Both the position numbers and the translations under genes were made by a program. Below the pieces are notes generated by a model. That model searched no databases and was not told the origin of the DNA. It saw only the letters and a list, made by a program, of their open reading frames with translations. This document shows, piece by piece, positions 7,895 through 50,269 of a stretch of 64,000 bases of DNA. The DNA lies in IMG/VR virus record IMGVR_UViG_3300021335_000004. The stretch is one strand, 5' to 3'. The stretch comes from a virus. The first letter of the stretch is position 1, and every line of letters begins with the position of its first letter.

Positions 7895-7905
7895 AAGGAT
7901 AAAAG

Positions 7906-9063: not shown

Positions 9064-9094
9064 ATACAACACCACTTATAAGAGGACATAAGAA

Positions 9095-25347: not shown

Positions 25348-25988
25348 TCATCGGCATAAGATTGGTTTTCATACCCTTCTAACCAAGGTCCTCCATCAGT
25401 AAAATGAACAGCACTTGGTTTAATATCTTTATCGTAGTATCCTAATAAGTAGTTCCACTCTATAGGCAAAGAACCAACTTCTCCGTCATAACACCAAGCA
25501 AATTGATGAAGATCGGCAGGGTCATAATTATTAACTAAATCAGGAGTAAGAAGACGACACGCCTCGTGTTCACAATTAAATAACATCAAGGATGACCAGT
25601 TCTTCTTTGGATAGAAATGATTTATTTGATTGTCCATTTTAGAAGAAGATTTAGGAGTATAAACATGTTGAACTACTTGAACTGCTTTAGTATCATCTTT
25701 AAGAGCAAATAAGTTAGAAATATCGTCTAACCATAAAAAGTCACAATCACAATAAACAGCCCAACCTTTGTACCCGCTTAGTGCAGGAACTAAAAAACGA
25801 GTAAGAGAGAAAGGAGTAGAAGCTCTATCGTCTTCTTCTCTCCAATAAATTTTTGAGTTTCTTAAATCGTTTTGATCGAGTTTATAGGCTTTAAAAAAAC
25901 TAGGATGAGCCGTATTTCTAAAAATAGAGTTAACACAGGTTTCATAAGCAACTGATTGTTTAGGGTCATAACCGATATAAATATTCAT
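25320..25988 (-). CDS. GT8-like glycosyltransferase
   Basis: IYIGYD…STPFSLTRFLVP…DCDFL…KNWSS…WN…HFTDGGPW. Confidence 0.85.
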   Translation of the reverse strand: MNIYIGYDPKQSVAYETCVNSIFRNTAHPSFFKAYKLDQNDLRNSKIYWREEDDRASTPFSLTRFLVPALSGYKGWAVYCDCDFLWLDDISNLFALKDDTKAVQVVQHVYTPKSSSKMDNQINHFYPKKNWSSLMLFNCEHEACRLLTPDLVNNYDPADLHQFAWCYDGEVGSLPIEWNYLLGYYDKDIKPSAVHFTDGGPWLEGYENQSYADEWRDYCSQK

Positions 25989-31589: not shown

Positions 31590-34466
31590 TTATCCTACTC
31601 CTGGCGATCCATAACCTAATGCTTGAGGACCTGTTGGTGATAATTCAAAAACAGAATCTACTGCATAATACCCAGAAGCAAAAGGAAATCTTTCAATCTT
31701 ATTAGTCCCGCTTGAATCAGTCATTAAATAAGCGTCATAAGCGCCTGATATAGCAGTGCCTTTAGATTGTTGAGTGTGTACATAAGGAGCCTGTGGCGCT
31801 TGAGGCCCTCTTAGTTCTCCAAACCATTGATCTCTATTTTCACCGTAGCCAACTGTTCTACTATAACTAGCCAAGGGTATAACCGAAAAACCTGTTAAAC
31901 CAGGAGTACTTGTAACAATATAACCAAGGTTACTCCAAGCGTACATTCTACCGCTTTCTGGAAAAGATCCTAAATCAGTTTTAGTGATAGAGGAAGAACC
32001 AGAAGCTCCTGCAAACCTATCAATATCATTATAATTAGTATTTCCGGCATCACTAGGATATTTAGAAGCACCTGCTATTTGATAACCATAATCCATACTA
32101 GCGCCTGAAGCTTGTTCCATTCTAGAAGTAGTTAGAGTACTAGATTCAGCAGCATTAGTTTCAGAAGGAAAGACAAACTGTTCCATAGTACTAACTGCTG
32201 CTTTTGGACCTGTGATATTACCTGTCCAACCACCTGCTACATAACCTCTATTACTAATACCTAAAGAAAATCCTCCGTGCATTGCTCTACCAGTAGTTAG
32301 TGTGTCTACTGAAGATGCTATTGTAGTACTAGGAAAAGTAAAAGAAGCAATATCGGTAGTCATCCCTTCGTTAGTAGGAGAGTTATAGTGCCCATATCCT
32401 CCTGCTGAATAAGCTTTATTAGTACTATCTGGAGATATTAACACAGCATGATTAGTAAAAGTATGAGAACTAGTAAGAGTTCCCGGATCTACAGCGACCC
32501 CACTCCCAGAGGTAAGTGGAAAGTAAGTTACCTTTCTTAAAGAAGTGTTCGAAGGCTCGTTAATACCGCCGCCGCCTATAGAACCTCCATATGCTTTATT
32601 TGATCCAGCAGAGTGATTAGGATAATAGTAACCAGGTTCTCCACTATAAGGACCTACAGGTGGGTAGCTAATCATTCTATTAAAGTAAACATCTCCAGCA
32701 CTTGGAACAGAAGCAGCATTAGCAGTGTGCTGAGTAGGTGTTGAGGTTGGTACGTATTGTGAATAAGAATAAGCTGACACAGAGGGAACATTAGTATTAA
32801 ATCTGAGATAAGCAAAACCTGGTTGAGCTTGATCTGCATAAGAACTATTTCCCATTATAGCAGCAGGGGTGTCACTAAACCCCTCATGACCTGGAAAACT
32901 TACAGGTCCTTGTCTACTACCGCTTGTATAAATTTTACCATAAGTAGCTGGAAAAACAGGAGCTTTCCAATTTCCTCCCGAACCTTTATTAACGGTTAAA
33001 GAGCCTGATCCAGGATATGCCGGTCCTGTGATAGGTACATTTCCTGGAAATCCGGATACTGTCATAGTATTAGGAAAAGTAAGAGTATATCCTACACCTC
33101 CAGCTCCTTGCATCTGTCCGAAAGTTCCGGGCCATGCTGATATAGGTCTATTATGTTCTAAATTGACACCTGCATATCCAGTACCGTCATTAGTGTGTGT
33201 AGGGGTTTTTGCATTTGTACCTGCAGGAAGTGTTCCTACATCACCACCATCTCCGGCTTGTCCTAGTTTAAGTGCTAACATAGACCTATCAGTAACTGAC
33301 ATAGCATAAGGACTTTCTGTAGGCGCAGGAGAAGCTAACTCTGGCTGAGTATCCCATCCATGACGTCTATAACCTTTTTGTAAAAAAGAAAGTTGAGACC
33401 TAGGACCGTTTGTTGCATTTGTATAAGGAGTAGAAGGTATAAATCCTACAGCATAGGGCATACCTGCATCAGCAGCATCAGCGTTTCCCTCTAGCATACC
33501 ACCTCGTTTACCTTGAAGACCTCCACCGGCTACTACGTAGTTAGTACCATTAATATTAACAGAAGTAGTACCTCCACTACCGTCTGCAGGAGCTGATCCT
33601 ATGCTAACCGAAATTGGAGTAGCAGGTGTAACAGGTATAGAGACAGGATAATAACCATGAGCGCCTGCTCCTCCCCCTCCAGCCCCTGCCATGTCTGTTT
33701 GATAAGTATAATGAGGTACCCACCACAACCCTCCATCATAACTAGTCGGGGCTTCAGTAGCTCCAGGACCATCTCCACCAGTATAAAGATAAGGGCCTGT
33801 GCTACCCCCAGCACCGATTGCAGTCCAAATTTGTACTGTAGATACTCCTTCTCCTACTAAATCACCTACTGTAGACCCTAAAGGAGCAGAAGGAGCGTCA
33901 AAAGCCATATCAACAACACCTGCTTTTTTATAAGCAGTAGAAGTATTTTCACTAGGAGACCCTGTTCCAGCATTATTAATGCCACGAATAACAAACTCAT
34001 GAAGAAGTCCTTGGGGTGTTGTAGCATTAGGAATTTTTAGAGTAATAGGAGAGGATGTAATAGGAGTTCCGTTTTCATCAGTACTAACATACGTATATGC
34101 TCCTCCTGCGGGAGCAGGTCTATATCCTATTTCCCAACTATTAGCAGTTTCTCCATTAGTGCTTTCTGTCCACGAAACATCAAACCCAAAAAAAGTATCT
34201 TCAGAAGTAGTAGCCGTAATAGTGGGAGCAGGATGAACAGTAGCTTGAATATTATGAAGTTCATCTAAAGAAATAGCAGTTCCTGGAGTAGAAGGTATCG
34301 AAGATGTTACAAAGGGATCGCTAGAAGTGCCATACCCATACTTCTCCCCCGGTGCAAGAACATTTCCAACACGATAGTCGTCTAACGATCCAGGGGCTGT
34401 TCTAAGGGGAGAGTATAAATCCTTAAGGTTTTGAAGGGAGATTGGTCCTGAAGTTGGAGTTCCCAT
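31590..34466 (-). CDS. large tail-tip/adhesin protein (Fn3-like, Gly-rich and Kelch-like domains)
   Basis: N-terminal PTSGPISL as in fibre-tip adhesins; Gly-rich GAGGGGAG; C-terminal IERFPFAS repeats. Confidence 0.7.
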   Translation of the reverse strand: MGTPTSGPISLQNLKDLYSPLRTAPGSLDDYRVGNVLAPGEKYGYGTSSDPFVTSSIPSTPGTAISLDELHNIQATVHPAPTITATTSEDTFFGFDVSWTESTNGETANSWEIGYRPAPAGGAYTYVSTDENGTPITSSPITLKIPNATTPQGLLHEFVIRGINNAGTGSPSENTSTAYKKAGVVDMAFDAPSAPLGSTVGDLVGEGVSTVQIWTAIGAGGSTGPYLYTGGDGPGATEAPTSYDGGLWWVPHYTYQTDMAGAGGGGAGAHGYYPVSIPVTPATPISVSIGSAPADGSGGTTSVNINGTNYVVAGGGLQGKRGGMLEGNADAADAGMPYAVGFIPSTPYTNATNGPRSQLSFLQKGYRRHGWDTQPELASPAPTESPYAMSVTDRSMLALKLGQAGDGGDVGTLPAGTNAKTPTHTNDGTGYAGVNLEHNRPISAWPGTFGQMQGAGGVGYTLTFPNTMTVSGFPGNVPITGPAYPGSGSLTVNKGSGGNWKAPVFPATYGKIYTSGSRQGPVSFPGHEGFSDTPAAIMGNSSYADQAQPGFAYLRFNTNVPSVSAYSYSQYVPTSTPTQHTANAASVPSAGDVYFNRMISYPPVGPYSGEPGYYYPNHSAGSNKAYGGSIGGGGINEPSNTSLRKVTYFPLTSGSGVAVDPGTLTSSHTFTNHAVLISPDSTNKAYSAGGYGHYNSPTNEGMTTDIASFTFPSTTIASSVDTLTTGRAMHGGFSLGISNRGYVAGGWTGNITGPKAAVSTMEQFVFPSETNAAESSTLTTSRMEQASGASMDYGYQIAGASKYPSDAGNTNYNDIDRFAGASGSSSITKTDLGSFPESGRMYAWSNLGYIVTSTPGLTGFSVIPLASYSRTVGYGENRDQWFGELRGPQAPQAPYVHTQQSKGTAISGAYDAYLMTDSSGTNKIERFPFASGYYAVDSVFELSPTGPQALGYGSPGVG

Positions 34467-36904
34467 TATTTTTCCTCAATTTTTGCTTTTAATTCTTTAA
34501 TAGCTTGAATGAGAAGAGGTACAACTCTACTATAATCAACAGCTAAATAACCATCTTCTCTAGTTTTTACTGCTTCTGGTAGTATTTCTTGAAGACTTTG
34601 TGCAATTACTCCCACATCGTGACCCTCTAAATGCTTGTAATTAAGGCCGGCCTCCCTTGCGTTCCAATCAAACTCAACTCCGGTAATAGAATCTACTTTA
34701 TCTAATGCGGAAACAATTGGGGTTATATTTTTCTTTAAACGAGAATCAGAAGTATTAAATGCTTCGACATCTCCACCTGCGTGAATAGCTCCTTCGACTC
34801 CTAAACCACCTGCTGTAATGATAAGAGCACCTGTATCTTTTGAAGTTGATGCGGTAGCATTTGTTACAGAAAGTGAGTCGGACTCGAGAGTAGTAAAGTT
34901 ACCTGTACCGGGTGTTGTAGCTCCTACATTAGTTCCATCAATAGCGCCTCCATCAATATTTACTGTATTTATAGTAACTGTTGTACCATTAAAGGTAAAG
35001 GTAGAGGCGTCTTGCAATTCTCCACTAGCACCAGCATAAATAACTCTGCCAGAAGTTAAATCAGCCACATTAGCAGAAGCTACTTTTAGCTGTGTTCCTT
35101 GTTTAAGATGAACATTACCAGAACCGTTAGGAGATAAAATTATATCACCATTAGTGTCAGTAGAACTTATAGTTCTTCCATTAAGTTGTAACTGATCAAC
35201 TAAAATATTAGTAGCAACTGAGTTCGTACCAATAGTGACGTCATCTATAGATCCACCATTAATATCAACAGACTGAGCGGTAAGAGTAGTACCATTAAAT
35301 GTCAAGTCTGCATCAGTAACTATTTGACCACTTGTTCCTGTGTATAAAACTCGATTTATAGTTTGTCCTGTTACATAAACATTTGGAGATATTAAATCTC
35401 TTTGAGGACGAACATCTCTTGCGTATACGTCTTGATAACCAGTAACTGTAAGAGAACCTGCTGTTGTACCGTCATCAGTAGTACTAAAAGCAGACCAACC
35501 ATCGTTTGCTTCATCCCAAACCCAAGCCATATTGTCCACAGAAGGACGGTACACTAATAGTCCAGCATCATAAGAAGCAGGAGCAGCCTGATTATTAGCA
35601 ACAACAATTAAAGGATCTTGTACTAAAAGGTTAGTAGCATCAGAAGTAAATGTTGAGCCTTGAACTACAAAATTACCTTCTACAAGCACATCTTGTTCAA
35701 AAGTTTTATCAACAGTAAACTTTTGAGAACCAGAATGGATAGCAGTTACATTATCTTGTACTGTATTAATATTAGAAGTTAAATCGGCGTGTAATCCCTG
35801 TACCGCTGTGTTAGTTGTTGTAGCAAAATAATGAAGGTTGCCTTGTACCAAATTAACATTACTAGAAATACTAGTATGAACAGAGCTAAATCTAGTATTA
35901 GAGTAAGCACCTAATGCATGAACATTTCCTTGAACAGTATCAATACGAGAATTAGAATAAGAACCTGTTATATGTAAATTACTTTGAACAGTATTTATGT
36001 CAGTATTAGCGCTATCAACCCCAAATATTAAAGAATTTATTGAAGTATTTGTAGTAGAGGCATAGTGATGTAAATTCGTTTGTACACGACCGGCGGCAAT
36101 ATCTTGTGTAAGAGTGGCACCGATAATAACTAGATTACCGTTAATTCTTAAATTACCGTTAATCTGCATCTGTGTATCAGGTACAATACCGCCTTCACCG
36201 ACAATTATTTGATCACCTATCTCATCGTTAGCGACATATCTAAATCCATTATCTCCAAAGGTTACTGATTCATATATTGATAAAGTATTGGCTCCTCTAA
36301 TAGCTCCATACATTGTAATATTTCTAATTTGATGATGAGTACCACCTACATCCATAAAACTTCTTAATACTAGATCACCACCAGCTACATCATTATCAAC
36401 TTCATAAATACCAAAATTACGACTAGGAAGAATGGAAGAATTAGCAGTCAATAACTCATTATATTTATAACCATCACTAAAAAATGCCTTACTATGAGCG
36501 TGATCTACTGCAAAGTATCCATTGTAAGTTATAGGAGAAGGAAATTTAACATTACTTTCATAAGCAGTTTTAAAAATAACTCTTGCAGTAGTAACAAAAG
36601 CATTACCATTTTCTGTTGTGAATGTTAGTCCTCCTGATTCAATAGAAGCATTGTTTAAGACAGCATTATCTATTACAGGAAATCCATTAATACGAGTACC
36701 TTGTGACATATGTAAATTAGAATTTACTACAGAAGGCGTGCCTGGGCTATCATTCAAGGTTAACCCTTGCATGGTTACAGTAGTAATATTAACATTATCT
36801 AAGGAAGTTTGTACTGTAGAATCACTAATACCTAAATTATCAATTGCTCCACTTATATTATTGGAGCCAGTACCGCCAAGGGAGACTGGGACTATAGTTG
36901 CCAT
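34466..36904 (-). CDS. tail fibre with C-terminal intramolecular chaperone (peptidase S74)
   Basis: SDSRLKKNI…GVIAQ…LPEAV…VDY..VVPLLIQAIKEL. Confidence 0.9.
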   Translation of the reverse strand: MATIVPVSLGGTGSNNISGAIDNLGISDSTVQTSLDNVNITTVTMQGLTLNDSPGTPSVVNSNLHMSQGTRINGFPVIDNAVLNNASIESGGLTFTTENGNAFVTTARVIFKTAYESNVKFPSPITYNGYFAVDHAHSKAFFSDGYKYNELLTANSSILPSRNFGIYEVDNDVAGGDLVLRSFMDVGGTHHQIRNITMYGAIRGANTLSIYESVTFGDNGFRYVANDEIGDQIIVGEGGIVPDTQMQINGNLRINGNLVIIGATLTQDIAAGRVQTNLHHYASTTNTSINSLIFGVDSANTDINTVQSNLHITGSYSNSRIDTVQGNVHALGAYSNTRFSSVHTSISSNVNLVQGNLHYFATTTNTAVQGLHADLTSNINTVQDNVTAIHSGSQKFTVDKTFEQDVLVEGNFVVQGSTFTSDATNLLVQDPLIVVANNQAAPASYDAGLLVYRPSVDNMAWVWDEANDGWSAFSTTDDGTTAGSLTVTGYQDVYARDVRPQRDLISPNVYVTGQTINRVLYTGTSGQIVTDADLTFNGTTLTAQSVDINGGSIDDVTIGTNSVATNILVDQLQLNGRTISSTDTNGDIILSPNGSGNVHLKQGTQLKVASANVADLTSGRVIYAGASGELQDASTFTFNGTTVTINTVNIDGGAIDGTNVGATTPGTGNFTTLESDSLSVTNATASTSKDTGALIITAGGLGVEGAIHAGGDVEAFNTSDSRLKKNITPIVSALDKVDSITGVEFDWNAREAGLNYKHLEGHDVGVIAQSLQEILPEAVKTREDGYLAVDYSRVVPLLIQAIKELKAKIEEK

Positions 36905-39483: not shown

Positions 39484-39698
39484 TTACCTATATCCTTTAT
39501 GTTGCTCATGGTTACAATAGTATAAGCTCCTTTATTAAACGCAGGAGCAGTAGGAAAAATACGCTTTTCTTCACCACAATCTAGACACGTATTGTAGCCT
39601 AATTGTTTTCTCTTTATAGAGAAGTCGTCTCCGCAGTCTTCACAAATTGCAGCAAAATTTTTCTTGCTAAAATTCTTATTTAGTGTTATCATAGTCAT
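39480..39698 (-). CDS. small zinc-finger protein
   Basis: CEDC…R..LGY.TCLDC…NKGAY. Confidence 0.7.
   Translation of the reverse strand: MTMITLNKNFSKKNFAAICEDCGDDFSIKRKQLGYNTCLDCGEEKRIFPTAPAFNKGAYTIVTMSNIKDIGK
39664..39692 (+). promoter_or_regulatory. promoter of the radical SAM operon (leaderless first gene)
   Basis: TTGCTA-17-TATCAT with extended TG; ATG 39699 begins 6 nt after the -10 box. Confidence 0.65.
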
Positions 39699-40292
39699 AT
39701 GAAATTATCCGAACATATACAAAAGTTTTCACAACAGTTATACGAAAAATATAAAAAAGTAAACCCAATAGAAATTATTACTAATTATCATTTTATAAGA
39801 GATGGTAAAGTATTTTACATTGAAAATGCTGAAGAAAATATGGTGTTTCCAAACTCTTATAAAAATACTATATCAAAAATAAAAGCAAAGAGCAAGAACA
39901 CATTTAAAGTAGAAGCCTTTGAAAAGTATGATGAGTTTATATCAGATATATGTAATTATCAAAATAAAAAAGAATATATAGACTGTCATCTGTATTGGGG
40001 AAAAGTAGGAAAATCTAGTTTTATAAGTCATGTAGATCCTTATGATGTAGTAATTTTATTACTATCGGGAAATAAAAAAATGATATTTCCTGATACTAAC
40101 GAAGAAATCATACTAAATCCAGGAGAGATTGTGTATATACCAGGTAATAAAGCACATTATGCAGACAATTTAACAGAAAATATTTCTTTAAGCTTTGGTA
40201 TTAGAAGATATTATAAAGAAATAGATTTAAAGTTACAAACATTACAGATGGAAAAAGATGAAGAATATAACAGTATATCTGAAAACAACTGA
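39699..40292 (+). CDS. JmjC/cupin Fe(II)-2OG oxygenase
   Basis: HVDPYD…K…PGEIVYIP…H…SLSFG. Confidence 0.8.
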   Translation: MKLSEHIQKFSQQLYEKYKKVNPIEIITNYHFIRDGKVFYIENAEENMVFPNSYKNTISKIKAKSKNTFKVEAFEKYDEFISDICNYQNKKEYIDCHLYWGKVGKSSFISHVDPYDVVILLLSGNKKMIFPDTNEEIILNPGEIVYIPGNKAHYADNLTENISLSFGIRRYYKEIDLKLQTLQMEKDEEYNSISENN

Positions 40293-41295
40293 AACTTGTC
40301 AATTAAATTGTAAACATTGTTTTACCAATGGTATAAATGGTAAAAAAATATTTTTTAATTCAGAAAAAACTCTTAGTTGGATGAAAAAATTAAGAGAGTT
40401 CTATAAAGATAGTCATATTCATTTTGAGTTTCACGGTGGAGAACCTTTTTTAGCTCCTCTATCTGATATGAGGTATATAGTTAATCAAACAAGAGACTGG
40501 GAGAATATTTCTTTTGGTATTACTAGTAATCTTACTTTTAAACTAACTGAAGACAAAATAAATTTTATTATGGAAGATTTAAAAGGTGTCATAGGAACAT
40601 CTTGGGACATGAGTATTAGATTTTCTAACGAAAAACAAAAAGCATTATGGGAAGAAAATGTACTAAGATTAAAAAATTTGGGAGCTTACATAACACTATT
40701 TGTCAGCGTTACAAAAGAGCTTTGTAACACAGATACTCAAGAAATTATAGAGTATATAAACACTCTCAATGTTGATATTGTAGATTTTGAAAGATTAACG
40801 GGACACGGTAACGCACAACTGCACCCAGAAATATTCCCAACTAATAAAGAACAAAGTGATTGGTTTCTAAAATTATATAAAAACAATAGTAAAAAAAATT
40901 GGGAAGATTCTTTTATTAAATCAATGGTTAATACTAGAGTTAATGGTAATCAAACCGCAACTTTTTGCAGAGATTGTGAACAAAAACTATTTACCATTAA
41001 TGCAGATGGTAGTATTAGTGGTTGTCCTAACTCAGCACCTGAAGAAGTATATGGAACAATAGAAGAAGAAATTTGGGAACTTATAGTTAACCCAAAACGA
41101 ATGAAAATAATTGCTTGTGAAGCAGCACGAGATCCTAGATGTTATGAATGTGATGTTTTTGATATTTGCGGAAGTGGTTGTCATCAGCTTGAGTGGGACG
41201 AAACACATTGTCCATCGCCAAAAGAGCTATTTAGATTATTAAAAAACACCCCTATAAAGGAGTTAAAACAAGGAGAGTATTATGTCAGCAATTAA
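40258..41295 (+). CDS. radical SAM/SPASM enzyme 1
   Basis: CQLNCKHC, FHGGEP; SPASM C…GCP…CYEC…CGSGC…C. Confidence 0.92.
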   Translation: MKNITVYLKTTETCQLNCKHCFTNGINGKKIFFNSEKTLSWMKKLREFYKDSHIHFEFHGGEPFLAPLSDMRYIVNQTRDWENISFGITSNLTFKLTEDKINFIMEDLKGVIGTSWDMSIRFSNEKQKALWEENVLRLKNLGAYITLFVSVTKELCNTDTQEIIEYINTLNVDIVDFERLTGHGNAQLHPEIFPTNKEQSDWFLKLYKNNSKKNWEDSFIKSMVNTRVNGNQTATFCRDCEQKLFTINADGSISGCPNSAPEEVYGTIEEEIWELIVNPKRMKIIACEAARDPRCYECDVFDICGSGCHQLEWDETHCPSPKELFRLLKNTPIKELKQGEYYVSN

Positions 41296-41881
41296 TACAG
41301 GAGATGAGGTAAGTAAAACCGCTGTAGTAAATAGATTTAATGAAGTTATGAGAAGTCAGATTAATCCAATAATTAATGTAGGAACTTCAACATCTTTTAG
41401 TAGTGGTAATTATAATCAATTTACTAACGTGCCTAGTGGAGGAGTTCCTTTTTCAAGAATCGGAACCCCTACAGTAGCACCCGCTGTTACTAGTGGATTA
41501 GGCAGTATTGTAGATGCAGCAGATTTAGCTACATATTTAAGAAATTTAACTCGTGATTATAGTGGAGTTAGAATAACAACATACAGATATAGGTTTAATA
41601 GAACAGGCTATCCTAGCGGTAACGGAAACAAAGTTATATCTTATAGAACTACTGATTATGTACATTATGATGGAGATGTTTATAAACAAACAGTTACAGA
41701 CAATAGTGCTACGTATGACATTGAAGAAGGTGACTTAATAGATGCATCAGATTTTGAAAGTTATATAGCAGATTTATATAATCAGTGGAATTCATTAAAA
41801 AATAATAGAGTAACAGTATTTGTAGATGCTTGTCACTCAAGTTGCCATAGTAATTGTCACGGTTCAAGGGGAAGACGATGA
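41282..41881 (+). CDS. putative substrate/precursor protein with C-terminal CHSSCHSNCHGSRGRR
   Basis: Three Cys-His-x-x repeats at the extreme C-terminus; recurring G..(I/V).A.D segments; embedded among maturases. Confidence 0.7.
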   Translation: MSAINTGDEVSKTAVVNRFNEVMRSQINPIINVGTSTSFSSGNYNQFTNVPSGGVPFSRIGTPTVAPAVTSGLGSIVDAADLATYLRNLTRDYSGVRITTYRYRFNRTGYPSGNGNKVISYRTTDYVHYDGDVYKQTVTDNSATYDIEEGDLIDASDFESYIADLYNQWNSLKNNRVTVFVDACHSSCHSNCHGSRGRR

Positions 41882-42576
41882 GAATAATTAGAACTAAAGC
41901 GCCTATTGATGTAGAGTACTTACAAGAATATTTTTCTTCTGAAGAAGAGATTATTTTTGATATAATGTATTACGACTCTGATATAAAAGGAAAAACACTA
42001 CTTAATTATGTATCTAATTTAGATATTAATTTTGAAATAAATCTATATAAAACCTCACAAGAAGAGAGGTATGATTTATTGAGTAACTATTTTACTACTA
42101 ATTTATTAGTAAATTGTAAACAACTTGAACTAGCTTTGACATATATCGTATTAAAATACAATAATCGTTCAGTCGATGACCTATACTCTTTTACGCTGTT
42201 AAAAGAAGAATATGTAGATAAATTTATTGAAGAACATAGAATACAGTTACTAAATACCACAGATTTTTTAGAATCATTACCAATTACAACACTGTCTTTT
42301 GTAGACTCTTTAAAAGATTTTGTTAATCAAGAATTAAAAAATTATGAAATAATAGATGATCCTGAAATTTTAGGTAAAAACGTAATTAATCTAATTAACA
42401 ATCCTTTTATCTTTAAAATATACGAAACTTCTGGTAGTAGAAAAAGATACTTTAAACACTACGCTGAAGAATATATCTATGACGAATCTAACTTATATGG
42501 TTGGATGGAAAAATATAATGTACCATTACTAGTTTTTGTTTCGGGGATTGCTTCTGGTGTTTTGCCTAGTAAATAA
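41878..42576 (+). CDS. hypothetical protein of the radical SAM operon
   Basis: ATGA overlap with the precursor stop. Confidence 0.7.
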   Translation: MRIIRTKAPIDVEYLQEYFSSEEEIIFDIMYYDSDIKGKTLLNYVSNLDINFEINLYKTSQEERYDLLSNYFTTNLLVNCKQLELALTYIVLKYNNRSVDDLYSFTLLKEEYVDKFIEEHRIQLLNTTDFLESLPITTLSFVDSLKDFVNQELKNYEIIDDPEILGKNVINLINNPFIFKIYETSGSRKRYFKHYAEEYIYDESNLYGWMEKYNVPLLVFVSGIASGVLPSK

Positions 42577-43693
42577 AATATATTTAGATTATAATTTTTG
42601 TTATGATGCGGAAACACCTAAAATATTAGTAGGGTATAATGATCCTATACCTAATACTTGGAATTATTTTTCGGATGCTGATAAATTATTTGCTAGTAAT
42701 ACTTTAAAGAATATAAATAAAGATACTGAAATAGTAATTCTTGCTAAACAAAATGAGTATGTAAAAGTACTCACTACCTATTTAAAATCTATACTACCTA
42801 ACCACTCAGTCGAGTCTTTGTATCATTTCTATAAATTATTATTACAAAAACATATTTATCTTCATGGTAAATCATGTTTAGCACACGACAACGGCTCTGT
42901 AAATCTAAACTCGCCTTGGAACTCATTATCTTTATTAAATGTTGAAGAATTTAAAAATATATATAATCAATGTAATAAACATCATTTAGATGATTTTTAT
43001 ATAAAAGGTGCAGGAATAGAGTTACAATTAGTTAGTTATTTAGCTAATACTAAATATACACATAAAGACATTTTATATAGTAAATTATATACAATAATCG
43101 CTGATACTGTTTTAAACGAAATTACCTATTGGAAAATGAATGTCATGTGTCAGCTCTTTGAATTAGGAGATTTGATAGAAGGAATTGATTATGGGTCAAA
43201 ATTGTATGAATCTGCAACATATAAAGATTTAAACTTACCAGAAGAATATAGCTGGCTTATGGATGAAAAAATAAAAGCTTATCCAGAACTAGAGTATATG
43301 TTAAAAAACTATGATTTAAAAAATATCTTTAAACTTTATCGTAAATCAGTAATGAAATACGGGCATAATGGGTTTTTTGATAGTGAACAGCTAATGGAGC
43401 TTTTTGTAAGTGGAGATATTAGTTTAAGAAAAATAGTTGATATAGATATTAATACTATATATGCTGGGGGTAATATAGGAGAATATCAACACCAAGATAA
43501 AACTACACATTATTTATTGAGATACTTTTACTTATTATGTAAAGAAAAACGCTATGATAAGTTGTCTGAGTATTCTTTAGAAGAAAAAACTACAAAATTT
43601 AAACCTTTTATAAACTTAAAAAAGAGAAACACTAAAAAAGTAAAAGAATGGGCTCTAAAAGATCACCACAGTTTTAGAGAAGATTATGTATAA
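42536..43693 (+). CDS. hypothetical protein of the radical SAM operon
   Basis: Long coupled ORF; start uncertain. Confidence 0.7.
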   Translation: MFRGLLLVFCLVNKIYLDYNFCYDAETPKILVGYNDPIPNTWNYFSDADKLFASNTLKNINKDTEIVILAKQNEYVKVLTTYLKSILPNHSVESLYHFYKLLLQKHIYLHGKSCLAHDNGSVNLNSPWNSLSLLNVEEFKNIYNQCNKHHLDDFYIKGAGIELQLVSYLANTKYTHKDILYSKLYTIIADTVLNEITYWKMNVMCQLFELGDLIEGIDYGSKLYESATYKDLNLPEEYSWLMDEKIKAYPELEYMLKNYDLKNIFKLYRKSVMKYGHNGFFDSEQLMELFVSGDISLRKIVDIDINTIYAGGNIGEYQHQDKTTHYLLRYFYLLCKEKRYDKLSEYSLEEKTTKFKPFINLKKRNTKKVKEWALKDHHSFREDYV

Positions 43694-44675
43694 CACAGTT
43701 ATAGATAAAAAAGCATCTACTCTAGGAGAGGTTATTGTAACACTCTTTGAACACTGTAATCTTGCGTGTAGTTTTTGTTCTCAAAATCATAGTTCATTTA
43801 AGGGTGTGGAATCTATCCCAGAAAAATACTTTGCGATAAAAAGCGTCTACGAAGACTTACGCTCACAAAATAAAGAACAATTTTCATTTCATTTTATGGG
43901 CGGAGAGATTTTGAGTGATCAGATTTCAAATCAAATTTTGAATAAAATTGAAGATTTAATTCTTAGATGTCAGCAATCATTTGAAAACAGTGAATTTCTA
44001 ATAACCTCCAATATGGTATGGAGTAACAGAGATAGAGTAAAACAAATACTAGATAGATTGAATATCAAACTAGCAGTTAGTTACGACCCTGCAGGCCGCT
44101 TTAATACTAAGCAATTTGAACAGTTTATGGGTAATGTTAAATACTTCAAAGAGTATATCACTACGGTAAATATAATATTAACTGCTCCTAACATTTATAA
44201 ATTCTTATCTGATGAAATAATAGGTTTTGATTATCTGTACGAACATTTTAATGTATACTTTGACTATTATACTCCTGAAAAAAACGCTAGTATAAACTGT
44301 CCTACAGACGTAGAACTATTAAACATATTTAAGTATCTGTCTATTAATTATCCTAAAGTAGCACCAATAAACAAGTATTTATCTGGAGAAACTAAGAAAA
44401 ATTTAACTTGTCAAAGAACAAAAGTAATAGCTGCTGATGGAGAAATAGGTCACTGTAATTTACTAGTTGGAGGCAATTATAGAGCATTAGCCCATGATAG
44501 TAGAGATAAAATGGAAGCTAAATGGATAGAGGGCTTTAACTGCTTAATGTGTGACCATTTTAGTAGGTGTGGATTAGGTTGCTTTCAAGAAAACCATATT
44601 TTACCGGAAAAAAGTACTATGGAACATTGCTGGATTAAAGATTATTGGGAGTGGTTAGATGGAACTTATAATTAA
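43686..44675 (+). CDS. radical SAM/SPASM enzyme 2
   Basis: CNLACSFC, MGGE; C-terminal CLMC…CGLGC…C. Confidence 0.9.
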   Translation: MYNTVIDKKASTLGEVIVTLFEHCNLACSFCSQNHSSFKGVESIPEKYFAIKSVYEDLRSQNKEQFSFHFMGGEILSDQISNQILNKIEDLILRCQQSFENSEFLITSNMVWSNRDRVKQILDRLNIKLAVSYDPAGRFNTKQFEQFMGNVKYFKEYITTVNIILTAPNIYKFLSDEIIGFDYLYEHFNVYFDYYTPEKNASINCPTDVELLNIFKYLSINYPKVAPINKYLSGETKKNLTCQRTKVIAADGEIGHCNLLVGGNYRALAHDSRDKMEAKWIEGFNCLMCDHFSRCGLGCFQENHILPEKSTMEHCWIKDYWEWLDGTYN

Positions 44676-45732
44676 ACCAACAGAGCGTTGTAATTTTAAG
44701 TGTACTTTCTGTTCTAGTACAAAAATTGCAGATTCTAAATCTGTTGAATTGGAACACGAAAAAATATTTACTTTTTTAAAAAGGTTTCCACACACTAATA
44801 CTATTATTGTGAATGGTGGGGATCCTTTGATGATGAAACCTAGTTATTATTGGAAAATAATTAAATATTTAGAAGATAATAATTTGGATACTACAATATC
44901 TTTGACTACTAACTTGTGGCCTTTTTACACTAAACCATCTAAATGGTTATCTCTTTTTCAGCATCCTAGAGTAGGAGTTTGTACTTCTTTTCAATATGGA
45001 GGAGGTAGATTAAAAGGAGATTTTACAGAATTTAGTGAAAAAGATTTTTGGAAAGTATCTGATAAAATGTTAGATCTTGTAGGTTATAGACCTGATTTTA
45101 TTTCTGTAATCACAAAAGAAAATGAAGACAGAGCAATAGATAACGTACTCTTAGCTAAAGAAATGGGAGTAGTGTGTAAACTAAATTATGCTGTCGCAAG
45201 CGGTCCAGAAATTAAATTTCTTAATGGAATTAAAATGGGATTAGAAAACTATACTTATCTTTTAGCAGATATATATGAAATCTATCTTAAAATATATAAA
45301 CAAGGATTAGCCGATTGGGAGTATAATACTACTCAGTTATTAAAAAGATTTTCTTCTAATACTACTTGTCCACAAAACCGAAATTGTGATTCAAATATCA
45401 GAAACTTAAATCCAGGAGGTGACTATTATTCTTGTGGAGCTTTTGGAGATGATAAAGAATATGAAATAGATTTTGATAAAGAAATGAATCAGAGGAAAAT
45501 AGAAACTCCTCTACAAAACTCTATTGAATTATTATCACTAAAGCAAGCGTGTTTTACTTGTCCTATGTTTAAAATTTGCAATGGTTGTAAAAAAACTATC
45601 AGCGATATAAAAAGACTAAACTTAGTAGAGACGCACTGTAAAAAAATGAAGAAACTAGCACCTGAAATAATAGAAATATGTAACCTAGAAGATAAACTAA
45701 CGGAGTATATAGATGAATCAGTATACGCATAG
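44659..45732 (+). CDS. radical SAM/SPASM enzyme 3
   Basis: CNFKCTFC, NGGDP; CPQNRNC…SCG…CFTC…CNGC…C. Confidence 0.92.
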   Translation: MELIIKPTERCNFKCTFCSSTKIADSKSVELEHEKIFTFLKRFPHTNTIIVNGGDPLMMKPSYYWKIIKYLEDNNLDTTISLTTNLWPFYTKPSKWLSLFQHPRVGVCTSFQYGGGRLKGDFTEFSEKDFWKVSDKMLDLVGYRPDFISVITKENEDRAIDNVLLAKEMGVVCKLNYAVASGPEIKFLNGIKMGLENYTYLLADIYEIYLKIYKQGLADWEYNTTQLLKRFSSNTTCPQNRNCDSNIRNLNPGGDYYSCGAFGDDKEYEIDFDKEMNQRKIETPLQNSIELLSLKQACFTCPMFKICNGCKKTISDIKRLNLVETHCKKMKKLAPEIIEICNLEDKLTEYIDESVYA

Positions 45733-46510
45733 AAAACTATGGCCTACACCTGTTCTACTAGGAACAGTAGATAAACAATTAGCCAAGGATTTATTTAATT
45801 ATATACTGAGCAAGTACCATAATCCTGATGAAAAAACAGAAGTATTTAACCTGTTTTCTATCGGTGAACCTCTTTTGGATAATTTATACAAAAATTATAT
45901 TGTTCCTGCTACAAAAGAATATATTAAAAATAATTTATTTCAGTCTAACCATTATGAAATAAAATCCTATGCTTGGGCCCATGTATTACCACAAGGACAA
46001 AATGTGGGTATTCATAATCATCCTAACAATCATATAAGTGGCACTATATGGTTAAGCGATCATGATAGTCATCTTTTAATGGTTGATCCAAAAGGTAATT
46101 CTAACATGATGGATTTTGGATATCTAGATTTAGAAATGCTAACTAAAAAAGGTATGACTGTTGGAAATGATGAAATAAGACATAATCATACTTCTAGATA
46201 TAATGAGTATGGTAGACAGATGAATAATAGTACTCTAGATTTTTCTGGATTATTTGGTGACTATGTTGATACATTTGATAAACCAACTCATTCTGTAAAC
46301 CCAACCAACATCACTATTAAACCAGAACTTGGTAAATTTATACTATTTCCCTCATGGGTTTGGCACGAAGTAGAACCTAATCAATCTAAACTGCCTAGGA
46401 TAAGTATATCTTGGGATACTAGAATTACTCCAAAGATAAAAAAAGAGCACAATATTCATTATGAACAAGACATTAGAGTATTAGGAGATGTTCTTGATGT
46501 ACAAAGTTGA
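45713..46510 (+). CDS. 2OG-Fe(II) oxygenase (HxH type)
   Basis: AWAH…IHNHP…FPSWVWHEV…RISISW. Confidence 0.85.
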   Translation: MNQYTHRKLWPTPVLLGTVDKQLAKDLFNYILSKYHNPDEKTEVFNLFSIGEPLLDNLYKNYIVPATKEYIKNNLFQSNHYEIKSYAWAHVLPQGQNVGIHNHPNNHISGTIWLSDHDSHLLMVDPKGNSNMMDFGYLDLEMLTKKGMTVGNDEIRHNHTSRYNEYGRQMNNSTLDFSGLFGDYVDTFDKPTHSVNPTNITIKPELGKFILFPSWVWHEVEPNQSKLPRISISWDTRITPKIKKEHNIHYEQDIRVLGDVLDVQS

Positions 46511-46913
46511 AAAAGGTGAACTACACCACTTACCAATACTAATAGCTTTATCCTATAATATGACAGAAGAAGAACGTGATGAAAAAGATGATTTTATCGA
46601 GTTAATAAAAGAACAAAGAGTACATCTACTATATTTAAAAGATAAACCTATTGGATATTATACAGTAGTATCTATTGAGAGAGGAGAGTATCTTGAAACT
46701 ATCTTAATAGATAAAAAGTATCAAGGTAAGGGTGCTATTAATAAATTAGGCGAATATGCAGTAAAGTCAAAAAATGGAAAGCCTCTTTGGGGGTTGAGCC
46801 GTCACAGAAGAGTAGATATGTTATTAAAAAAATTTGGATTTGAACCAAAAGAGTATGAAATTATTAAAGGAGTTAGTTATAGATGGTGGATAAACCGTTT
46901 TCAGTCTCAATAA
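46488..46913 (+). CDS. GNAT-family acetyltransferase
   Basis: IDKKYQGKG motif A; KKFGF. Confidence 0.75.
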   Translation: MFLMYKVEKGELHHLPILIALSYNMTEEERDEKDDFIELIKEQRVHLLYLKDKPIGYYTVVSIERGEYLETILIDKKYQGKGAINKLGEYAVKSKNGKPLWGLSRHRRVDMLLKKFGFEPKEYEIIKGVSYRWWINRFQSQ

Positions 46914-47797
46914 ATCCTAGTTACTTTTGTAATTTTAGGTGTAATTTTTGTTATTTAACTCCTGAACAACTTGGAGATCAGAAAAAAATTGACCCTAAAA
47001 AATTAGATAAGTTGTTATCAAACATACCTAAAATAGATCATATAGACTTATATGGAGGAGAAATTGGAGCGCTCAAGAAAGACTATTACTATGAAATCAA
47101 GTCTGTTATACGTAAACACTATAATGATTACATCAATATTAATACTAATTTTTCTATGCTTGACGACAGATTCTTCGAGGATGATATCACTCTTTCCGTC
47201 TCATATGATTTTTCCGCAAGAGAAAAATCAAAGTTAGTATTTCAAAATATGCTGATGAGTCCAAAACCTATTTCCGTATTAATTCTTGCTTCTGAAGAAG
47301 TATTAAAATTAGATATTAATTCTATGATAAAACAATTAAATATGTGTAAATCAATTATATCTGTAGAAATAAAACCTTATAGTACTAATCAAGCTAATAA
47401 ACACGTTGTTACCCATAAAGATTTTGAAAACTTTGTTATCAAATGGATTGAGAGTCCAGTAAAAAAACGCTTTGAATTTCAAAACCTAAACAGAATAAAG
47501 AGAAGTGTAAGAAAAGAATATAATGCTTTTTCTGACGACCACATCTACATTACTCCAAATGGTAAATATGCTGTATTAGCTTTTGACAAAGAAGATAGTG
47601 AGTATTTTTTAGAATTTACTAACTACTCTAGTTTTGAACAATGGGCTTGGACAGAAAAGAAAACTCTTTCTACTATCTGTAGCGGTTGTTATTGGAAAGG
47701 ACATTGTTTAACTGAACATTATAGACATGTAAAAGATTTAAGAAATAGTTGTAATGGTTATATAAATTTATTAAGTAGATATAGTAATGCGTTTTAG
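46883..47797 (+). CDS. radical SAM enzyme 4
   Basis: CNFRCNFC, YGGE; C-terminal CSGC…C…C. Confidence 0.9.
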   Translation: MVDKPFSVSINPSYFCNFRCNFCYLTPEQLGDQKKIDPKKLDKLLSNIPKIDHIDLYGGEIGALKKDYYYEIKSVIRKHYNDYININTNFSMLDDRFFEDDITLSVSYDFSAREKSKLVFQNMLMSPKPISVLILASEEVLKLDINSMIKQLNMCKSIISVEIKPYSTNQANKHVVTHKDFENFVIKWIESPVKKRFEFQNLNRIKRSVRKEYNAFSDDHIYITPNGKYAVLAFDKEDSEYFLEFTNYSSFEQWAWTEKKTLSTICSGCYWKGHCLTEHYRHVKDLRNSCNGYINLLSRYSNAF

Positions 47798-48443
47798 TTT
47801 TTCAGATCATAGCGATAACTTTGATGAGCATATTAATAAAAGTATTATTTCGTATAATAACTTAGTAGATATGATTATTACTGTATCTGGATTTTTTATA
47901 CAAGATAATACAACAGTATATGATTTAGGATGTTCTACTGGTAAAATTTTAAGGAAAATAAAAAAAGCGTCACACGCTAATAATGTTTCGTATATCGGAA
48001 TAGATAATGAAACAGCTTTTTCCCCATACTGGAAAGAAAAAGACATAGAGTTTAAAATTGAAGATGTGAGAAAACTAAAGTTTGATAGTGATGTTTCTTT
48101 AGCTATCTCTACCTTCACTCTTCAATTTTTACCTACTATTGATAGAGTAAAATTATTAAAAAACATATATGATTCTTTAATACCAAACGGAGCATTAATA
48201 CTTTGTGAAAAAACATATTCTAATGATTCTATGTTACAAGAAGTATTTACTTTTGCTAACTATGATTATAAAGCTAAATTTTTTAGATACGATGATATAA
48301 TGTTTAAAGAAAAGGAGTTAAGAGCCTCTATGAATATTAGATCTTGGGACGCTATTTTACAAGAAGTAGAAAAAATAGGATTTAAAAAGTATGAAGTATT
48401 CTGGAAGGCGTATAATTTTGTAGGAGTCATATTGGTAAAATGA
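47787..48443 (+). CDS. CmoA-like class I SAM-dependent transferase
   Basis: FDEHI.KSI..Y, YDLGCSTG, FTLQF, GALILCEK, YNF.G. Confidence 0.85.
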   Translation: MRFSFSDHSDNFDEHINKSIISYNNLVDMIITVSGFFIQDNTTVYDLGCSTGKILRKIKKASHANNVSYIGIDNETAFSPYWKEKDIEFKIEDVRKLKFDSDVSLAISTFTLQFLPTIDRVKLLKNIYDSLIPNGALILCEKTYSNDSMLQEVFTFANYDYKAKFFRYDDIMFKEKELRASMNIRSWDAILQEVEKIGFKKYEVFWKAYNFVGVILVK

Positions 48444-48952
48444 TTACTTATAAACAAGTAATAAAAAAAGGTTTTGCTTTTGAGAGTATTATAATACCTA
48501 AAAATATAAAAACAGAACTAAAAGCATTAACTTTTTATCCAAATGAGGACAAAGATTTAGGGAAAGAAGTAGGATGGTCTACACTAGGTATGCCTACTAA
48601 TCTTAATGAGTTCTTTATCGAACAATTATATGCAAAAGTAGACCCATACTTACAGAAACTTTTAGATAAGCTAGAAACTTTTGAAGCGTATAAAACAGAT
48701 AAAAATGAGTATGTAGAATTACATACAGATAATGCTTTTGGTGGGTTAGTTCAAATTATGATTTACTATATTGAAAAAGATATGAAAGGTAGGGACTTTT
48801 TATATGGAACAAAAAATGATATTAAAAAAATAACTCCCTACACAGGATTAGTAATTATATGTGATCAAATAAATAAAGAATGGTTGCACGGAACAACTCC
48901 TTTATTGAGTGACACTTTTAATTTATGTATTACAGGAATCACACCTAGATGA
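48440..48952 (+). CDS. 2OG-Fe(II) oxygenase-like protein
   Basis: LHTD…WLHG..P. Confidence 0.65.
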   Translation: MITYKQVIKKGFAFESIIIPKNIKTELKALTFYPNEDKDLGKEVGWSTLGMPTNLNEFFIEQLYAKVDPYLQKLLDKLETFEAYKTDKNEYVELHTDNAFGGLVQIMIYYIEKDMKGRDFLYGTKNDIKKITPYTGLVIICDQINKEWLHGTTPLLSDTFNLCITGITPR

Positions 48953-49632
48953 ATAAAAAAGAATTTTACAGAAAAGAACATTATGAAAAAAAGAACTGGC
49001 TTCATAAAAACGGAAGAGTTAATGCCACGGTTGCAGGTAATAACTGGGTTGGTGTATCTGTCTCTCCTTATATGAAAGATTTTAAATATCAAGTAGATCC
49101 TGGTATTTGGCCTCTAGTAGAAATACTTAATAAAAAAGGGTATTTAACTTGTTCTTCTTGCGAAGGGCATGATTGGATGGAAGAATCATTTGTTGTTGTT
49201 TGCTTTGGTTCTAAAGAATCGAGAGATGCTTTTGCTGAACAAGTTGTTAAAGCAAAGCTGCCGCAGTATAGAATTTTTTATCAAGAATCACAGACTAACA
49301 TTAACCTATACGATCCTTTTAATGATTATCATGAAATAATGGATGACCCAACTATGGATGAAACTCAAAACTGGTTTAAGATTGAAGATAAATTATACTT
49401 CACAAAAATAGAAGAAGAGATACCAGAAGAAATTATTGAAAAAGAAACAGAAAATTGGAATTACTGTTTTGGTAGAAAGTATAAAAGATGGTACTATTGC
49501 AGACTACTAATAGGAGGAGCTGTGTTGAACGGTAAAAACCCAGTAAGCATAGTAGTTCATTGGACTCGATATTTCTGGATTAATAGGCTAGCAAAGTTTA
49601 TAAAAGAAAACGTGGAGCAAGGATATGACTGA
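48949..49632 (+). CDS. hypothetical protein with TYW3-like N-terminal motif
   Basis: VDPGI.PLV..LN.KGY.T.SSCEGH. Confidence 0.55.
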   Translation: MNKKEFYRKEHYEKKNWLHKNGRVNATVAGNNWVGVSVSPYMKDFKYQVDPGIWPLVEILNKKGYLTCSSCEGHDWMEESFVVVCFGSKESRDAFAEQVVKAKLPQYRIFYQESQTNINLYDPFNDYHEIMDDPTMDETQNWFKIEDKLYFTKIEEEIPEEIIEKETENWNYCFGRKYKRWYYCRLLIGGAVLNGKNPVSIVVHWTRYFWINRLAKFIKENVEQGYD

Positions 49633-50269
49633 TAAGTTTGTAGAAATTCAATATGACTCTGACAATATCGTTGAATATGTGTATAAAAGCAATTCAAATG
49701 AAAAAGATATACTAGAACTAAAAAATAAATTGTTTATAAATTTTAGTGAAGAAATAACTAAAGATTTAACTTTTTCTCACGATATGATTAGTTATCATCC
49801 AAAAAATAATACTACATATAAAGAAGATTCAATAATTATAGTATTCAGTGAAAAATGTCCTTATTACTTAAGAGAAGAGTTTAACATTCCTTTTTTTAAT
49901 TCATTAGATTTTTATGCAATAAAATATTATTTAACTAGTAAAAAAAGAATACTAAAAACTTACGATGCCGATATGTATAAATATGAAATACCTCAACTTC
50001 CCCATATGTCTGCTATAGGTAATCAATTTGGGGTTGGAAGAACACACGCATTAGACAAAGAATATAGAGATGTATACTTTTTTAACTCAAATGATATGAT
50101 GGTTAATTATTTTTATGGAGACTTAGTTCCTAAAATTGGTGAACCATATAAAAATCCCGCAACTAAATGTTACGGGATTACTTATGAAGAAGGAGAAAAA
50201 GATATTCTTAAAGTAAAAAGATATTTATTTCCCTTTCATTTAGAAATGACAGATTTATCTTGTTTATAA
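49625..50269 (+). CDS. hypothetical protein, last gene of the radical SAM operon
   Basis: Coupled ORF; its stop overlaps the convergent thyX stop. Confidence 0.65.
   Translation: MTDKFVEIQYDSDNIVEYVYKSNSNEKDILELKNKLFINFSEEITKDLTFSHDMISYHPKNNTTYKEDSIIIVFSEKCPYYLREEFNIPFFNSLDFYAIKYYLTSKKRILKTYDADMYKYEIPQLPHMSAIGNQFGVGRTHALDKEYRDVYFFNSNDMMVNYFYGDLVPKIGEPYKNPATKCYGITYEEGEKDILKVKRYLFPFHLEMTDLSCL

Follow-up and report, generated by a model that had tools for sequence, protein, structure and literature searches.

A conserved phage module proposed to mature the Cys-His tail of a virion protein with several radical SAM enzymes

Radical S-adenosylmethionine (SAM) enzymes with SPASM domains are known to act on small secreted peptides and on a few cellular proteins, in which they form thioether, carbon-carbon or ether crosslinks or oxidize Cys and Ser residues. 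Here we compare described systems of this kind with an operon of 14 genes (g1 to g14) in a large marine phage, the IMG/VR virus record IMGVR_UViG_3300021335_000004, of which a stretch of 64,000 nucleotides (nt) was analyzed and is called the window below. The operon encodes four radical SAM enzymes and a 199-amino-acid (aa) protein, g3 (41282 to 41881, + strand), whose C terminus carries closely spaced Cys-His pairs. On balance, we think that the enzymes of the operon modify this tail and that g3 is retained as a virion protein, probably in association with fibers.

In the bacterial HXS system (HxsA, HxsB/HxsC and HxsD; Nat Commun 2026, PMC13128918), the H-x-S repeats of HxsA are matured by two radical SAM enzymes, and the system blocks the entry of phage DNA. 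If g3 is indeed the substrate, the two systems have much in common: at least two radical SAM enzymes act on the H-x-S repeats of a whole protein, not of a short peptide, which afterward functions as such, and a small or uncharacterized partner protein accompanies the enzymes. However, HXS is periplasmic, involves N-terminal processing and a peptidoglycan-binding domain, and uses H-x-S units, whereas here C-H-x-S units stand at the extreme C terminus, four to nine enzymes are joined by oxygenases, and the protein is found in the virion. The initial annotation of the window had drawn a parallel with the His-Xaa-Ser and CXXX-repeat systems. The hidden Markov model (HMM) searches that it suggested spoke against membership, with scores of 13 to 34 bits against cut-offs of 268 to 370 bits (at most 27.1 versus 370 bits for HxsB, TIGR03978, and at most 34.4 versus 267.9 bits for HxsC, TIGR03977). 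Nor was there a counterpart of the HxsD partner or of an HxsA-type repeat protein: g3, g4 and g5 had no NCBIfam match at E values up to 0.1, and the g3 tail is not an HxsA array.

The anaerobic sulfatase maturases anSME/AtsB (TIGR03942; PDB 4K36 to 4K39) offer another parallel. They are compact SPASM enzymes of about 350 to 370 aa that lack a RiPP recognition element (RRE; RiPP, ribosomally synthesized and posttranslationally modified peptide) and modify a retained protein at a local Cys/Ser motif. The last repeat of the g3 tail, C-H-x-S-R, is loosely like the C-x-(P/A)-S-R motif of their sulfatase substrates; we kept this sulfatase-like reading only as a lead, since tails with Asn at that Ser exist. 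Unlike the anSME systems, the locus has four paralogous enzymes and no sulfatase or sulfatase domain, and g2 is not a member of TIGR03942 (47.3 versus 349.45 bits).

The CXXX-repeat, SCIFF and ranthipeptide systems (TIGR04115, CteB, PapB) resemble the operon in placing Cys residues at a four-residue period beside SPASM maturases. Their enzymes have an RRE at the N terminus and act on short peptides that bear a leader and are as a rule exported, whereas the protein here has 124 to 309 aa and appears to be retained, and the enzymes scored 20 to 53 bits against cut-offs of 340 to 350 bits. PapB (NF047865) was the best NCBIfam match of g2 (E = 3e-14), at 52.9 bits against a cut-off of 340 bits, and the CXXX-repeat maturase model TIGR04115 was best matched by g6, in the N-terminal core only (20.1 versus 350 bits). 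QhpD puts several Cys-based crosslinks in QhpC, the gamma subunit of quinohemoprotein amine dehydrogenase and likewise a small protein kept in a larger assembly, but that assembly is a periplasmic redox enzyme served by one radical SAM enzyme, and the sequences are unrelated (g2 28 bits and g6 21 bits versus 453 bits). The triceptide and darobactin/dynobactin maturases (XyeB, YhhB, GrrM, DynA) link an aromatic ring, including that of His, to the beta-carbon two residues on, a spacing that H-x-S fits. DynA was the best NCBIfam match of g7 (E = 1.7e-14) at a score far under the cut-off (54 versus 450 bits), and the products of these maturases, unlike the protein described here, are small secreted peptides. 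Judged by its sequences, the module belongs to none of the Hxs, CXXX-repeat, PapB and anSME families. The marks of a classical RiPP pathway, namely, a short leader-core precursor, a leader protease and export or immunity genes, were absent from the annotated genes of the window operon and of the related loci L002 and L005.

The C terminus of g3, C-H-S-S-C-H-S-N-C-H-G-S-R-G-R-R, contains three C-H units at a spacing of four residues and an Arg-rich end, exactly as the initial annotation had described it. A sequence search with g3, which belongs to phrog_35144 (unknown function) and to no Pfam or NCBIfam family, retrieved 12 relatives down to 27% identity. All of them had the same 16-residue ending, which was invariant even at 27 to 31% identity; the body of the protein diverges to less than 30% identity while the tail stays fixed. 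A degenerate DNA pattern of the tail matched at least 119 viral contigs. Among the matches listed, the motif was the exact C terminus in 155 of 155 motif-bearing open reading frames (ORFs), and 109 of the 143 unique relatives, which span 124 to 309 aa, had no other Cys. Even the positions left free by the pattern were constrained, with Ser, never Thr, after each C-H-x and with Ser (90%) or Asn at the free fourth position.

The tail was recovered as well when the search was made with the protein body. A body profile run against 1.84 billion representatives found 557 clusters; among the best 150 of these, 113 ended in (CHxx)3 followed by a basic tail, about 30 in near variants, and only about 5 were fragments or fusions without it. 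The repeat number was nearly always three and in a few relatives four. Tails with four C-H-x-S units were seen in L146 and L153, contigs of metagenome-assembled genomes of Bacteriovoracia, and some relatives end in the variants A-G-R-G-R-R or R-W-R-R. The predicted structure of g3 (predicted local distance difference test [pLDDT] score of 67) had no match in the PDB with Foldseek or VIA-align (best Z score, 4.7) and in BFVD matched only uncharacterized phage proteins, among them gp170 of Agrobacterium phage Atu_ph07.

In hundreds of divergent loci, proteins with this tail are encoded beside radical SAM genes almost without exception. Of the 81 loci among the matches listed that had 5 kb or more of flanking sequence, 79 carried one or more ORFs with a CxxxCxxC motif, 48 carried at least three, and the maximum was nine; the loci without such an ORF all stop within 2.2 kb downstream. 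Relatives of g7 were found on 337 viral contigs, with a tail ORF within 10 kb in 60 of the 80 best loci. At least one of the best loci with no tail ORF in range, L203, shares its contig with L079, which carries tail genes. The synteny search that had been put forward as a check thus revealed a near-invariable association.

Searching the tail-motif loci among the matches listed with the 14 window proteins by BLAST gave homologues of g2 in 84 loci, g4 in 82, g6 in 73, g1 in 48, g7 in 46 and g10 in 38. The g4 homologue follows the tail gene in its 82 loci, and in 48 viral loci the g1 homologue immediately precedes that of g2. Homologues of g9 and g11 to g14 were restricted to close relatives (g9 in 5 loci, g11 in 2 other loci, g13 in 8 and g14 in 5); g13 corresponds to L5_11 in L005, and g11 is absent from L002, a relative at 65% identity. 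The conserved core therefore comprises only some 9 to 10 of the 14 genes, to which particular lineages have added g12, g14 and the CmoA-like, GNAT and TYW3-like genes. The common gene order is a large protein, a small ORF, a protein termed BIG (described below), the cupin, R2, the tail protein, g4, a g5-like gene, R6, R7, R10, x12 and a 2-oxoglutarate (2OG) oxygenase, where R2, R6, R7 and R10 denote the counterparts of g2, g6, g7 and g10. Most modules have a 2OG oxygenase gene close to their end.

Searches with g7 and g4 matched the identical 15 of 50,697 phage records: the Ralstonia phages RSL2, RSF1, the FLC4 phages and RsoM3USA; Burkholderia phages FLC6, FLC8 and S13; Agrobacterium phage Atu_ph07; Sinorhizobium phage Phosso; and Pseudomonas phage pPa_SNUABM_DT01. 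The core is reproduced by RSF1 ORF069 to ORF082 and by Atu_ph07 gp172 to gp165 (g1 being ORF069 and gp172, and the tail protein ORF071 and gp170, respectively), and the g7 identity to the RSF1, Atu_ph07 and Bdellovibrionota copies is 55 to 62%. In the same 50,697 records, the module was found through g7 and g4 only; a megablast search with the operon and tblastn searches with g3 and with the small tail protein of a second module type gave no match.

In this second type, seen in L072, L126, L054 and some 30 further viral loci, a tandem pair of tail proteins of about 127 aa precedes five additional radical SAM genes. Together with the four core genes, these bring the number of radical SAM genes to as many as nine within about 12 kb. 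In RSF1, an HNH endonuclease gene and two dihydrofolate reductase (DHFR) genes are inserted between two radical SAM genes (80329 to 81618, L127), with a GIY-YIG nuclease gene just upstream. Phages RP12 and RP31 are described as carrying a similar-looking cluster of two YomR-like proteins, a 125-aa ORF, a 295-aa ORF and four radical SAM/Fe-S genes (PMC5468394, supplement). Its 125-aa ORF is a candidate for a small tail protein.

The published virion proteome of Atu_ph07 includes the tail protein. It lists gp170 with 8 unique peptides and 35% coverage (PMC6102473, Table S5), and gp170 is a 296-aa, 32-kDa tail protein ending in C-H-S-S-C-H-A-S-C-H-N-S-R-S-R-R. The enzymes and the g4 homologue (gp165 to gp169, gp171 and gp172) are not on the virion list, while the upstream gp176 and gp177 are (PMC6102473). 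Virion proteomics, which the initial annotation had called for, thus places the tail protein of Atu_ph07 in the particle and leaves the enzymes off the list. On the gel, gp170 was found in bands 1 to 9 with its peak in band 1, whereas band 8 is where the other proteins of some 30 kDa are most abundant; band 1 otherwise consists of proteins of 75 to 139 kDa, and gp170 is the only well-supported protein below 40 kDa with this pattern (PMC6102473). This migration fits a covalent adduct or an oligomer that resists sodium dodecyl sulfate (SDS) and heat.

A link to fibers comes from the neighboring genes. The BIG proteins, of 225 to 2824 aa, immediately precede the module in 74 loci (for example, L005:1-1854 and Atu_ph07 gp176, L128:5535-7358). 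They have in common a C-terminal domain of about 140 aa with the motifs Y-A-D-L-A-E and G-R-V-P-V-K-V, which is carried by gp176 (HMM E = 2e-42) and matches a "tail fiber protein" PHROG. Both the window and one Bdellovibrionota chromosome have Peptidase_S74 fiber genes next to the module. Elsewhere in the window (6473 to 10495, + strand), a 385-aa protein with a weak N-terminal match to Mtd_N (major tropism determinant) is encoded between two proteins of 473 and 466 aa with FG-GAP repeats (E about 1e-73).

The four radical SAM enzymes are g2 (40258 to 41295; CxxxCxxC at residues 14 to 21), g6 (43686 to 44675; Cys 24, 28 and 31), g7 (44659 to 45732; the most conserved gene) and g10 (46883 to 47797; Cys 16, 20 and 23), all on the + strand. 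Their CxxxCxxC motif is invariant among homologues and lies near the N terminus; because it begins at residues 11 to 24, the enzymes have no N-terminal RRE domain. Against PF04055 (cut-off, 29.5 bits), g7 and g10 passed with 38.5 and 31.0 bits, and g2 and g6 fell slightly under with 23.7 and 26.7 bits (g6, E = 7e-6). The SPASM model TIGR04085 (cut-off, 27 bits) was matched by g2 with 31.6 bits, g6 and g7 staying below at 15.8 and 22.2 bits. We also compared the extra C-terminal Cys residues with the SPASM/twitch pattern of TIGR04085 and PF13186, C-x9-15-G-x4-C ... C-x2-C-x5-C-x3-C ... C, which binds auxiliary 4Fe-4S clusters. With SPASM spacing, there were 8 invariant residues in g2 (11 invariant Cys in all, alignment A3), 6 to 7 conserved residues in g6 and 8 invariant residues in g7. 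In g10, 4 invariant residues form a half or twitch-like set, that is, one auxiliary-cluster motif. The earlier claim of SPASM-type tails on all four enzymes is therefore borne out in full for g2, g6 and g7 and by half for g10.

The best NCBIfam matches of these genes were to maturases of peptides and proteins, namely, PapB, anSME, CbpB, DynA, YhhB and DarE, at 40 to 54 bits against cut-offs of 340 to 650 bits. Single-sequence phmmer searches of the four enzymes against PDB sequences found nothing. Matches were obtained only with family profiles, which reached anSME, CteB, ChlB, SuiB and MoaA. Among solved structures, the g2 profile reached anSME (near the top) and CteB, and the g7 profile aligned over its full length to anSME 4K36, its best match (E = 1e-6). 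Because of these profile matches and the missing RRE, the architecture is closest to that of anSME, a compact enzyme that reads a local protein motif. A fifth radical SAM/SPASM gene lies elsewhere in the window (23837 to 24805, - strand; PF04055, E = 1.8e-15; SPASM, E = 2.5e-11). It is part of a small separate cluster on that strand (23254 to 25988), 15 kb off the operon, with a methyltransferase gene (23254 to 23844) and a GT8-like glycosyltransferase gene (25320 to 25988).

Of the oxygenases foreseen in the initial annotation, the JmjC enzyme was recovered as g1 (39699 to 40292, + strand; "cup" in the core), a JmjC/cupin oxygenase well above the cut-off of PF08007 JmjC_2 (E = 2.9e-11; 43.4 versus 22 bits). 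Two further 2OG-Fe(II) oxygenases had been claimed. One is g8 (45713 to 46510, + strand), which matches PF13759 (E = 7.9e-19; 68.4 versus 27 bits) and falls slightly short for TIGR02466 (56 versus 62.5 bits). The other, g12 (48440 to 48952, + strand; 170 aa), was rejected as an oxygenase, having no match in Pfam, NCBIfam or PHROG scans; it has a homologue in the module of Bdellovibrionota genome G005. The GNAT, CmoA-like and TYW3-motif genes proved to be weak resemblances, each of which missed its family cut-off. For g9 (46488 to 46913, + strand), a GNAT-like accessory gene, the shortfall was marginal (PF13508, E = 7e-5, 23.6 versus 27 bits; PF00583, 19.3 versus 20.7 bits). The accessory gene g11 (47787 to 48443, + strand), for a class I SAM methyltransferase, scored 125 versus 193.3 bits with the CmoA model TIGR00740 (E = 3.6e-36) and passes generic methyltransferase domain models. 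A C-S-S-C-E-G-H patch marks g13 (48949 to 49632, + strand; 227 aa), which we rejected as a TYW3 protein, as its score with PF02676 was under the cut-off (15.1 versus 27 bits, E = 0.015, 28 residues aligned) and a PDB search gave nothing. The last gene, g14 (49625 to 50269, + strand; 214 aa), has homologues in 5 loci and in G005. Family scans gave no match for g3, g4, g5, g12 or g14.

Two conserved proteins accompany the tail protein. The first, g4 (41854 to 42576, + strand; 232 to 240 aa; phrog_20767, unknown function), has a likely start at ATG 41878, which shares an ATGA with the stop codon of g3 (41878 to 41881) and suggests translational coupling of the two genes. Its AlphaFold2 model is well defined (pLDDT, 91) and had no match in the PDB, VIA-wide or Atlas (best Z score, 5.5 across 59 residues); a faint likeness to radical SAM half-barrels was judged not usable. 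A g4 profile found nothing among PDB sequences, a protein-atlas feature search found nothing for g4 or g5, and the database relatives of g4 are all named hypothetical. Prediction of a g3-g4 complex scored 0.00, which is uninformative either way. With no detectable fold relative, g4 may have an RRE-like role. The second protein, g5 (42536 to 43693, + strand; about 380 aa; phrog_36207, unknown function), has weak homologues of about 350 to 390 aa, which occupy the equivalent place in RSF1 (as ORF072), in L005 and in the Bdellovibrionota loci.

As had been reported for the operon, its 14 + strand ORFs (39699 to 50269) overlap from neighbor to neighbor, by 4 to 35 nt, and run against their surroundings. 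Both flanks are on the - strand: a 72-aa gene starting at 39698 on one side and, on the other, a convergent thyX ending at 50264, which the 3' end of g14 overlaps. The GC content is 0.27 to 0.31 within the operon versus 0.32 to 0.42 outside it, in agreement with the AT-richness noted earlier, and the GC skew changes sign. A single promoter had also been claimed. The candidate, a sigma-70-like element at 39664 to 39692 on the + strand inside the divergent 72-aa gene (TTGCTA, 17 nt, TG-n-TATCAT), has 9 of 12 consensus matches with an extended -10 TG. Promoter-like matches in the region were fewer than expected from shuffled sequence (55 versus 71), that is, not enriched above chance. The overlaps thus point to an operon, and the single promoter is only a candidate. 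The window itself is phage DNA, with a Peptidase_S74 tail fiber (34466 to 36904), a baseplate-like protein (57733 to 59913), thyX and PhoH.

The module is not confined to phages. A looser tail pattern matched 35 stretches in 185,579 prokaryote genomes. Twenty-four were true C-terminal tails, 14 of them in Bdellovibrionota, and the other 11 were out-of-frame or internal chance matches, mostly in Streptomyces and other actinobacterial genomes. Four Bdellovibrionota genomes carry g7 at 55 to 61% identity together with the full core. On a 1.29-Mb Halobacteriovoraceae contig (G002, L164/L165), the module adjoins a 413-aa Peptidase_S74 fiber-type protein and is bracketed by housekeeping genes: acyl-CoA dehydrogenase, electron transfer flavoprotein and serine dehydratase genes on one flank and Mrp-type NTPase, YchF, phosphoribosyl pyrophosphate synthetase and penicillin-binding protein genes on the other. 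Because of this bracketing, we regard this copy as a chromosomal island rather than an obvious prophage. L166 and L167 are further chromosomal copies in Bdellovibrionota.

We propose that the operon serves to mature a single protein, g3, whose tail would be both the recognition element and the substrate. The radical SAM enzymes would read the tail directly, as the anaerobic sulfatase maturase reads a local Cys motif, and would take hydrogen atoms from Cys, His or Ser carbons, giving thioether or carbon-carbon crosslinks or oxidized residues. JmjC_2 enzymes of the RoxA/NO66 group beta-hydroxylate His or Arg in proteins, and the JmjC and 2OG oxygenases of the operon may hydroxylate the same residues in the tail. 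The GNAT-like protein and the methyltransferase would add lineage-specific tailoring. The fixed Cys, His, Ser/Asn and Arg residues match what enzymes of these classes are known to catalyze, and it is from this fit that we infer the reactions. The mature protein would be neither cleaved nor exported but built into the particle, most likely into the tail fiber or baseplate, where the modified tail may form an anchor or tip that is rigid, covalently linked or metal-binding. The initial annotation had envisaged a crosslinked or hydroxylated peptide or virion-protein tip and had taken the lack of a protease or exporter to favor a retained protein; the annotated genes and the presence of gp170 in virions agree with a retained virion protein, and the modification itself is proposed. 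More tentatively, the tail may become a new kind of covalent staple put in by the enzymes, or a metal cofactor derived from Cys and His, that fixes a variable receptor-binding protein onto the tail fibers, a chemistry that large phages would share with the prey-recognition fibers of predatory Bdellovibrionota. Such a staple or cofactor would explain why a 32-kDa Atu_ph07 protein is found at the top of an SDS gel.

Several points weigh against tail maturation. The assignment of g3 as the substrate rests on gene neighborhood, and its three Cys-His pairs could simply bind metal. To our knowledge, four to nine enzymes per 16-residue tail exceed the need of any known system, so some of them may act on a fiber or another target. 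The BIG gene is absent from the window and from RSF1. The anomalous migration of gp170 can also stem from an SDS-resistant oligomer, which is frequent for tail fibers, and the gp170 peptides behind the mass spectrometric identification are unlisted. These points shade into the main rival explanation, in which the tail is an unmodified Zn, Fe or Fe-S site at the axis of an oligomeric fiber-tip protein and the enzymes modify something else, such as a neighboring fiber protein. Cys and His at i, i + 4 and i + 8 are classic metal ligands, His-coordinated iron reportedly occurs in the phage fiber and spike proteins T4 gp37 and P2 gpV, fiber genes adjoin the module, and the number of enzymes is more than so short a tail seems to need. 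We nevertheless consider this explanation unlikely, since it is the tail protein and not the fiber that is the enzymes' invariant neighbor, being kept in the window and in RSF1 where BIG is missing, and since simple metal binding requires neither the conserved Ser/Asn position nor the Arg-rich end.

It is very unlikely that g3 merely carries a small product, such as a cofactor or an antibiotic, that is cut out and released, the protein being its scaffold or precursor. SPASM enzymes do act on C-terminal cores in the pathways of pyrroloquinoline quinone, mycofactocin and many RiPPs, a pattern that the g3 tail would follow. Yet the annotated genes of L002, of L005 and of the window operon include no match to a protease or transporter family, the body of 124 to 309 aa is variable and unlike a leader, and the orthologue gp170 was recovered at 35% coverage from purified virions. 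Modification of tRNA or phage DNA by a wybutosine-like or uridine 5-oxyacetic acid (cmo5U)-like pathway could account for the CmoA-like match of g11 (E = 3.6e-36), the weak TYW3 patch of g13, the adjoining thyX and the DHFR genes inside the RSF1 module, and JmjC enzymes include the tRNA hydroxylase TYW5. We find it barely plausible: the CmoA-like and TYW3-like genes, found in only 2 other loci and in 8 loci, respectively, are not core and score under their cut-offs; the four SPASM/twitch enzymes resemble protein maturases, not TYW1 or QueE; and the obligatory tail protein would be left unexplained. Least probable of all is a phage-borne counterpart of the HXS defense, in which the matured tail protein would block the DNA entry of competing phages (superinfection exclusion). 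The H-x-S units and basic residues of the tail recall HxsA (PMC13128918), but the enzymes scored far too low (HxsB, 27 versus 370 bits; HxsC, 34 versus 268 bits), g3, g4 and g5 lack any NCBIfam match, no signal peptide was noted, though none was scanned for, the orthologue is in the virion, and the module is linked to fiber genes.

No description of the module or of its tail motif was found in the literature searched, and papers on jumbo phages count the cupin, radical SAM and 2OG genes among the accessory genes and assign them no role (PMC11898562, PMC8066314, PMC5468394). Lying outside every curated family tested, the module appears to be a new variant of radical SAM-dependent protein maturation. 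If tail maturation is correct, a conserved set of four to nine radical SAM enzymes serving a single virion protein would put such chemistry to a new use in virus assembly and would give a function to jumbo-phage "accessory" genes so far listed without explanation. The family is large, with 557 clusters of tail proteins and 337 viral contigs for g7, and extends over marine, soil and plant-pathogen phages and predatory bacteria. Cultured jumbo phages that carry the module (RSL2/RSF1, FLC6/S13 and Atu_ph07) make the question directly answerable. If the tail protein is a receptor-binding or fiber-anchoring part, the module would bear on host recognition.

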